This document shows positions 38,760 to 39,035 of a DNA stretch of 64,000 nucleotides, in pieces. The stretch's first letter is position 1. Each line of letters starts with the position of its first letter. The DNA is from Escherichia coli (GTDB taxonomy: Bacteria; Pseudomonadota; Gammaproteobacteria; Enterobacterales; Enterobacteriaceae), in NCBI RefSeq assembly GCF_041248615.1, contig NZ_CP158426.1; one strand, written 5' to 3'. The position numbers and the translations under genes were made by a program. The notes under the pieces are model-generated. The model worked only from the letters and a program-made list of their open reading frames with translations. It was not told the DNA's origin and did not search any database.

Positions 38760-39035
38760 GTGGCTTCTGTTTCTATCAGCTGTCCCTCCTGTTCAGCTAC
38801 TGACGGGGTGGTGCGTAACGGCAAAAGCACTGCCGGACATCAGCGCTATCTCTGCTCTCACTGCCGTAAAACATGGCAACTGCAGTTCACTTACACCGCT
38901 TCTCAACCCGGTACGCACCAGAAAATCATTGATATGGCCATGAATGGCGTTGGATGCCGGGCAACCGCCCGCATTATGGGCGTTGGCCTCAACACGATTT
39001 TCCGCCATTTAAAAAACTCAGGCCGCAGTCGGTAA
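38760..39035 (+). CDS. insA: IS1 InsA (transposition inhibitor / DNA-binding protein)
   Basis: 91-aa [27 protein letters not shown]...; A6C slippery site TTAAAAAAC at about 39009-39017 for the -1 frameshift that makes InsAB'. Confidence 0.95.

Follow-up and report, generated by a model that had tools for sequence, protein, structure and literature searches.

A complete R100-type IS1 element, probably still mobile, beside a truncated yejO in Escherichia coli

The narP-yejO locus and the architecture of its IS1 element

The locus was studied within the window, by which we mean the whole stretch of 64,000 nucleotides of Escherichia coli DNA that was analyzed; it agrees with the chromosome of the E. 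coli isolate NRZ14408 (NZ_LT599825.1) at each of the 9768 bases compared. The surroundings are those of an ordinary nap-ccm-narP/yejO-yejM core neighborhood. On the minus strand lies an intact narP gene (37895..38542), which is divergent from an IS1 element and whose annotated start codon stands 162 bp from the left terminal repeat (IRL) of that element. On the plus strand, the base following the element opens a remnant of yejO (39473..41698); compared with the intact locus, it has lost the upstream region and the first 122 codons, the N-terminus among them, and PGAP records it as a pseudogene 'missing N-terminus'.

Between these two genes, on the plus strand, is a complete IS1 of 768 bp (38705..39472), which nucleotide comparison places with the R100-type isoform, from which it departs by a single silent base, the T at element position 127. 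Its left terminal inverted repeat, GGTGATGCTGCCAACTTACTGAT (38705..38727), was found by an exact match, is the same as the IRL of K-12 IS1A, and has this single match in the whole window, with none expected by chance; the right terminal inverted repeat (IRR), ATCAATAAGTTGGAGTCATTACC (39450..39472), is the same as that of K-12 IS1A and of the R100 copies. The two form a 23-bp imperfect inverted repeat that is complementary at 18 of 23 positions, and the IS1 ends begin with GGTGATGCTGCC. A consensus scan further recovered a promoter-like CTGCCA-16-TATGAT arrangement overlapping the IRL on the plus strand (38712..38739); its position fits the weak IS1 promoter that has been described as partly overlapping this repeat (PMC12428005), and we infer that it functions as such.

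Two overlapping reading frames occupy the interior of the element, and the open reading frame listing gives neither of them an internal stop. The first, insA (38760..39035, plus strand), starts with GTG and codes for a 91-aa protein combining a zinc ribbon with a helix-turn-helix domain, the repressor and inhibitor of transposition (Pfam Zn_ribbon_InsA, 3e-21; HTH_Tnp_IS1, 1.7e-30). The second, the insB' frame (38954..39457, plus strand), comprises 167 codons in the -1 frame relative to insA, and the stretch from its first ATG to the insA stop codon defines an overlap of 82 nt (38954..39035). The translated part of insB' is the portion from 39014 onward, which supplies the C-terminal catalytic portion of the fusion protein InsAB', join(38760..39014, 39014..39457), of 232 aa. 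In this fusion protein PF03811, PF12759 and PF03400 are all matched at full length, giving the order zinc ribbon, helix-turn-helix and IS1-type DDE domain, the last of these (DDE_Tnp_IS1) over positions 1-131 of 131 with an E-value of 3.7e-78; the NCBIfam equivalog transpos_IS1 (NF033558) is matched with 243.8 bits, its cutoff being 100. In the PGAP annotation of the matching chromosome NZ_LT599825.1, the transposase (protein WP_095033700.1) is likewise assigned to IS1 and marked 'programmed frameshift'. The element hence has the features of IS1 proper, namely a length of about 768 bp, terminal repeats, two open overlapping frames, a phased A6C motif and the expected domain set.

The A6C motif is contained in TTAAAAAAC (39009..39017, plus strand), which was located by a motif search and by its phase relative to the insA start and which includes the slippery heptamer A-AAA-AAC (39011-39017). 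The 9-mer occurs once in the window, where 0.66 occurrences are expected by chance, so that by itself it is not significant; it is informative because of its location in the insA/insB' overlap. The insA-frame codons at this site are TTA (39009), AAA (39012) and AAC (39015), and therefore the heptamer is in phase for a -1 slip, the product of which, on translation, reads ...F81 R82 H83 L84 K85 K86 L87 R88 P89.... A role of the A6C motif in the programmed -1 frameshift of IS1 has been documented (PMC12428005, PMC12903888). The folding energy of 39009-39110, at -32 kcal/mol, is close to the average of -29.8 for shuffled sequences (z = -0.66) and lends no support to a strong stimulatory RNA structure, and no Rfam family matched within 38500-39700 at E <= 1. 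The preliminary description of this DNA had pointed to an A6C motif in the insA-insB overlap, to two uninterrupted frames and to the presence of both terminal repeats; all three observations are borne out, and the interval 38954-39035 that it had singled out is exactly the 82-nt overlap.

The catalytic center is equally complete. By residue numbering of InsAB', the codons of the three acidic residues lie on the plus strand at 39083..39085 (D109, in EMDEQW), 39254..39256 (D166, in MTDGW) and 39329..39331 (E191, in RIERHN), with 24 residues between D166 and E191; we take these to be the D-D-E triad that Ohta et al. 2002 reportedly described. H200, R203 and Y231 are present as well. Inactivating substitutions in the catalytic residues, which the preliminary description had named as the finding that would speak against its reading, are thus not seen.

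Comparison with the K-12 and R100 isoforms

Six IS1 copies were extracted from K-12 MG1655 and compared with the window copy at the nucleotide level. They differ from it by one nucleotide (IS1B and IS1C), three (IS1D), eight (IS1A and IS1E) and 74 (IS1F). In K-12, regular transposition has been reported for IS1A and IS1E alone; IS1B, IS1C, IS1D and IS1F hardly move without an excess supply of transposase (PMC12428005, PMC12903888). The mobile pair, which has been termed the 'consensus' copies (PMC12428005), belongs to type I and is identical to the window copy at 760 of 768 positions, sharing its repeats, the A6C motif, H193, L217 and the D-D-E residues. Four of the eight substitutions fall in the insA/insB' overlap (element positions 262, 298, 301 and 304), three of them just upstream of the slippery site, and only two alter InsAB', namely L81F and S130R, the window copy having F81 (codon 39000..39002, plus strand, in the helix-turn-helix) and R130. 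As a separate observation on the three upstream differences from K-12 IS1A, they correspond to window positions 39002, 39005 and 39008, within 10 bases upstream of the heptamer (TTCCGCCAT vs TTACGTCAC), and the bases found there are common to the window copy and the IS1 of R100.

The type II copies IS1B and IS1C are the closest of the K-12 set (767 of 768 positions) and have the same F81, R130 and T127 as the window copy. Their sole difference is an A at element position 704, which makes residue 217 a Gln, where the window copy has T (39408) and hence Leu-217 (codon 39407..39409, plus strand). The PGAP label "IS1B family" might suggest that the window copy is simply the immobile K-12 IS1B; this identification is ruled out by that one base. 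The type III copy IS1D is identical at 765 of 768 positions and differs by H193Y (the window copy having His at codon 39335..39337, plus strand), by a base at position 50, between the IRL and insA, and by an A at position 262. Work attributed to Chen et al. in 1998 reportedly identified His-193 and Leu-217 as residues that govern transposability, substitution of either lowering transposition about 30-fold; these residues fit the private K-12 differences computed here (L217Q and H193Y). The remaining K-12 copy, IS1F (extracted segment 4472-5240), is interrupted within insB' by an in-frame stop codon (…EVVV*MTDGW…) shortly before the second catalytic Asp; among the non-consensus copies, it is reportedly the one most readily mobilised in trans (PMC12903888).

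In K-12 IS1B, IS1C and IS1D, too, the frames are open, the A6C motif is in place and the two repeats are present. Because these copies pass the same checks and are yet reported as nearly immobile, the intactness of frames, repeats and motif is, by this comparison, insufficient to infer that an IS1 copy is mobile. A comparison at the level of isoforms is what is needed, since K-12 copies that are only one to three bases away pass visual inspection yet hardly move.

The isoform that settles the affiliation of the window copy is that of plasmid R100 (IS1R), the classical experimental IS1 on which transposition and frameshifting have been studied. Both R100 copies, which flank the r-determinant (NC_002134.1, 21225-21992 and 93514-94281), are identical to the window copy at 767 of 768 positions and share with it the repeats, the promoter region, the A6C window, InsA and InsAB'. 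The sole difference is T in the window copy against C in R100 at element position 127 (window position 38831), which turns codon 24 of insA from ACC into ACT and is synonymous. The same transposase accession, WP_095033700.1, is annotated in R100 and in the chromosome matching the window. InsA and InsAB' being identical to those of R100, and His 193 and Leu 217 being present, the window copy belongs with the R100 type; unlike the R100 copies, it is chromosomal and without a target duplication. The preliminary description had proposed a nucleotide-level comparison with functional isoforms, and this comparison clearly favors mobility.

Evidence that this isoform moves

When 5426 complete E. coli genomes were queried with the 768-bp sequence, 4970 of them contained IS1, at a median of 11 places per genome; thousands of copies match the window IS1 at all 768 positions, among them many on E. 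coli chromosomes and plasmids. The T at position 127 is itself common: 2784 of 9342 IS1-bearing records match a 61-nt probe across it exactly. Six of the exact copies, situated at unrelated loci, were examined for target-site duplications, and two of them are flanked by a perfect 9-bp duplication, one within evgS in strain CREC-629 (TAACATCAT) and the other between yoaB and yoaC in strain RM14721 (AGTTAGTTT); the other four have no duplication and adjoin truncated genes, as in the window. We also considered ten loci encoding an identical InsB', of which eight have the exact C127 (R100) sequence, one has C127 with one further change and one is divergent (21 differences); 9-bp duplications are found at four of the nine near-identical C127 loci.

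The identical copies flanked by duplications support the view that the exact sequence of the window IS1 has transposed in nature. In principle, a transposase supplied by another isoform could have moved these copies in trans; IS1 transposase is reported to act preferentially in cis. As no part of the window copy is disabled in sequence, it should be competent for transposition. A rival reading is that the element is structurally intact and effectively immobile, like K-12 IS1B, IS1C and IS1D, on account of L81F, of S130R or of a context without read-in transcription from the divergent narP side. F81 and R130 are common to the window copy and to these nearly immobile copies; L81F, located in the helix-turn-helix, has been suggested as a candidate cause of immobility, and genomic context has been shown to shift IS1 transposition about two-fold (PMC12428005). 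However, F81 and R130 represent the R100 state and not a defect, because the IS1 of R100 encodes identical InsA and InsAB' proteins, both residues included. Moreover, each of the immobile K-12 copies in question has a private change (L217Q or H193Y) that is absent from the window copy, and exact copies of the latter with fresh 9-bp duplications exist. We consider immobility of this kind improbable. Thus, the earlier statement that the copy is "probably still mobile" stands as a conclusion, being supported by the R100-type comparison and by the exact copies flanked by duplications, whereas the grounds on which it had been made, the intactness of the element, are not enough to carry it.

A probable deletion at the right end of the element

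A search for a target-site duplication around the window IS1 found none: GGAATTTTG borders the element on the left and GGCGCAGCG on the right, with no direct repeat at the junctions. Comparison with strains having a simple insertion identifies the 8 bases adjoining the left end, GAATTTTG (38697..38704, no strand assigned), as the left-flank copy of an 8-bp target duplication whose right-hand copy is absent. The flanks match NZ_OW967178.1, which has the intact locus, without a difference over 4500 and 2200 bases, and in that genome the two junction points lie 523 bp apart (extracted segment 4501-5023). The missing 523 bp comprise 157 bp upstream of yejO and codons 1-122 of its 863. A missing duplication is a mark of the insertion event and not of the element, and here it is explained by the 523-bp deletion; by the same token, yejO is a pseudogene in the window strain because of the insertion sequence and not because of point decay.

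Judging from these junctions, an IS1-dependent deletion has already occurred at this locus. Adjacent deletion is a classical activity of IS1, and the present case resembles the classical examples in that the insertion sequence is kept, the sequence beside one of its ends is lost and no target duplication is left; it differs from them in that the mechanism is read from the product alone, and the same outcome would be expected if two IS1 copies had recombined. The most economical history that we can infer begins with a simple insertion at the left-junction site; a deletion starting at the right end would then have taken away the 523 bp along with the duplicated 8 bp.

Three other histories merit consideration. 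In the first, RecA-dependent homologous recombination between two IS1 copies in direct repeat, lying at the intergenic site and at yejO codon 122, would have caused both the 523-bp loss and the missing duplication. Its product would match the observed sequence, and a second copy is plausible in view of the several strains with an IS1 inside yejO; against this, none of the 5426 genomes apart from the source strain has an IS1 at the codon-122 junction, and the route takes two insertions plus a recombination where adjacent deletion takes one insertion and one intramolecular event. We regard it as a possible though less probable course. In the second, IS1 would have entered yejO first, at the present right junction, and its left end would then have attacked the intergenic hot spot, deleting leftward. 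The intergenic site being a preferred IS1 target, it is possibly also preferred for intramolecular attack, and the junction would look alike; however, among the 5426 genomes an IS1 at the right junction is found in no other strain, whereas simple insertions at the exact left junction and in the same orientation are found in two, and we deem this order of events unlikely. The third is that the junction is an assembly artifact produced by collapsed or misjoined repeats at the insertion sequence. IS copies are classic sites of misassembly, and NZ_LT599825.1 has about eight IS1-matching places; nevertheless, that chromosome is a finished one and shows no difference from the window across the 9768 compared bases, the order of sequence on either side of the element is that of the ordinary narP-yejO neighborhood, and long reads have no difficulty in crossing a repeat of 768 bp, which leaves an artifact very hard to credit. 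The preferred history remains the simple insertion followed by a right-end deletion.

A minor feature of the right junction is that the TAA ending insB' (39455-39457) shares its reading frame with the yejO remnant from 39473, with no ATG, GTG or TTG between them; this looks like a one-in-three coincidence and not like a fusion.

Recurrent insertion of IS1 between narP and yejO

The junction used by the window copy has been used by IS1 in other strains. AVS0973 and 2017.17.01CC each have an IS1 whose left junction and orientation coincide with those of the window copy (extracted segments, each 3001-3768) and which is flanked by the 8-bp duplication GAATTTTG, 8-bp duplications being a known outcome of IS1 insertion; the isoforms concerned are 11 and 7 bases, respectively, from the window copy, and an ungapped comparison of the flanks of both strains points to indels in them. 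Strain 600055 has a divergent IS1 located 12 bp to the right of the common site, with a 9-bp duplication CAGCTTCTC (extracted segment 1113-1880). Within yejO itself, IS1 is found in STEC409 with the duplication TCAAGAATG (extracted segment 3244-4011), in UTAK-5 (NZ_CP157152.1; extracted segment 3443-4210) without a duplication, and in several further genomes of the 5426 searched. As an aside, the IS1 of UTAK-5 directly adjoins phage lysis genes, coding for a glycoside hydrolase family 19 protein and LysC (extracted segment 4216-5361), which suggests an IS1-mediated rearrangement that joined yejO to a prophage.

Such repeated use of the narP-yejO region is compatible with the known preferences of IS1. 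One might go further and regard the region as a precise recurrent hot spot, because three strains with different isoforms agree in both the nucleotide and the orientation of insertion, one has IS1 12 bp away and others have it in yejO; repeated silencing of the YejO autotransporter, or rewiring of the region upstream of narP, would then perhaps have been selected and not have arisen by neutral decay. We offer this as a speculative and rather doubtful extension.

Proposed mechanism and significance

Combining these strands, we propose with considerable confidence that the window holds a complete, canonical R100-type IS1 that would be competent for transposition, and that it probably inserted upstream of narP and subsequently underwent an IS1-dependent deletion at its right end. 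The weak promoter in the left end is predicted to transcribe insA together with insB'. Normal translation would yield InsA, the zinc-ribbon and helix-turn-helix protein that is expected to bind both ends and to repress the element, and a rare -1 slip of the ribosome on the heptamer A-AAA-AAC would yield the 232-aa InsAB' transposase, in which the DNA-binding domains of InsA are joined to the DDE catalytic domain with D109, D166 and E191. This transposase would act mostly in cis on the two 23-bp ends. At the present locus, the element is envisaged to have inserted 162 bp upstream of narP, at the site that IS1 uses in other strains with the 8-bp duplication, and the ensuing deletion from its right end would have removed the duplicated 8 bp and the 523 bp, inactivating the autotransporter gene through the loss of 157 bp of upstream sequence and of yejO codons 1-122.

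As an element, the window IS1 is a textbook R100-type copy and represents known biology. What the analysis adds is the argument at the level of isoforms, the truncation of yejO by this copy and the recurrent use of its target site; IS1 being among the best-studied mobile elements, the significance is mainly for annotation. The preliminary description had also suggested that the copy could drive further rearrangement at the narP-yejO locus. This appears reasonable, in that the missing duplication and the replacement of 523 bp indicate that an IS1-dependent deletion has taken place here before, and an active IS1 situated 162 bp upstream of narP could plausibly give rise to more deletions, or to inversions, within the nap-ccm-narP region of the isolate.

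Observations on the wider locus

Beyond the yejO remnant, the intact-locus strain NZ_OW967178.1 has, downstream of yejO (extracted segment 7637-9523), genes for an AAA-family ATPase and a hypothetical protein along with a transposase fragment, and the corresponding stretch of the window strain is occupied by tRNA-Pro and yejM. The difference suggests a variable island beside the tRNA-Pro gene. Further along the window, the reading frame of yejA (53910-55724, minus strand) is broken by an in-frame stop codon (…RAMP*PSSD…), and the annotation treats the gene as a pseudogene. Its product is the periplasmic binding protein of the YejABEF peptide/microcin C importer, so that this transporter is probably inactive in the window isolate.
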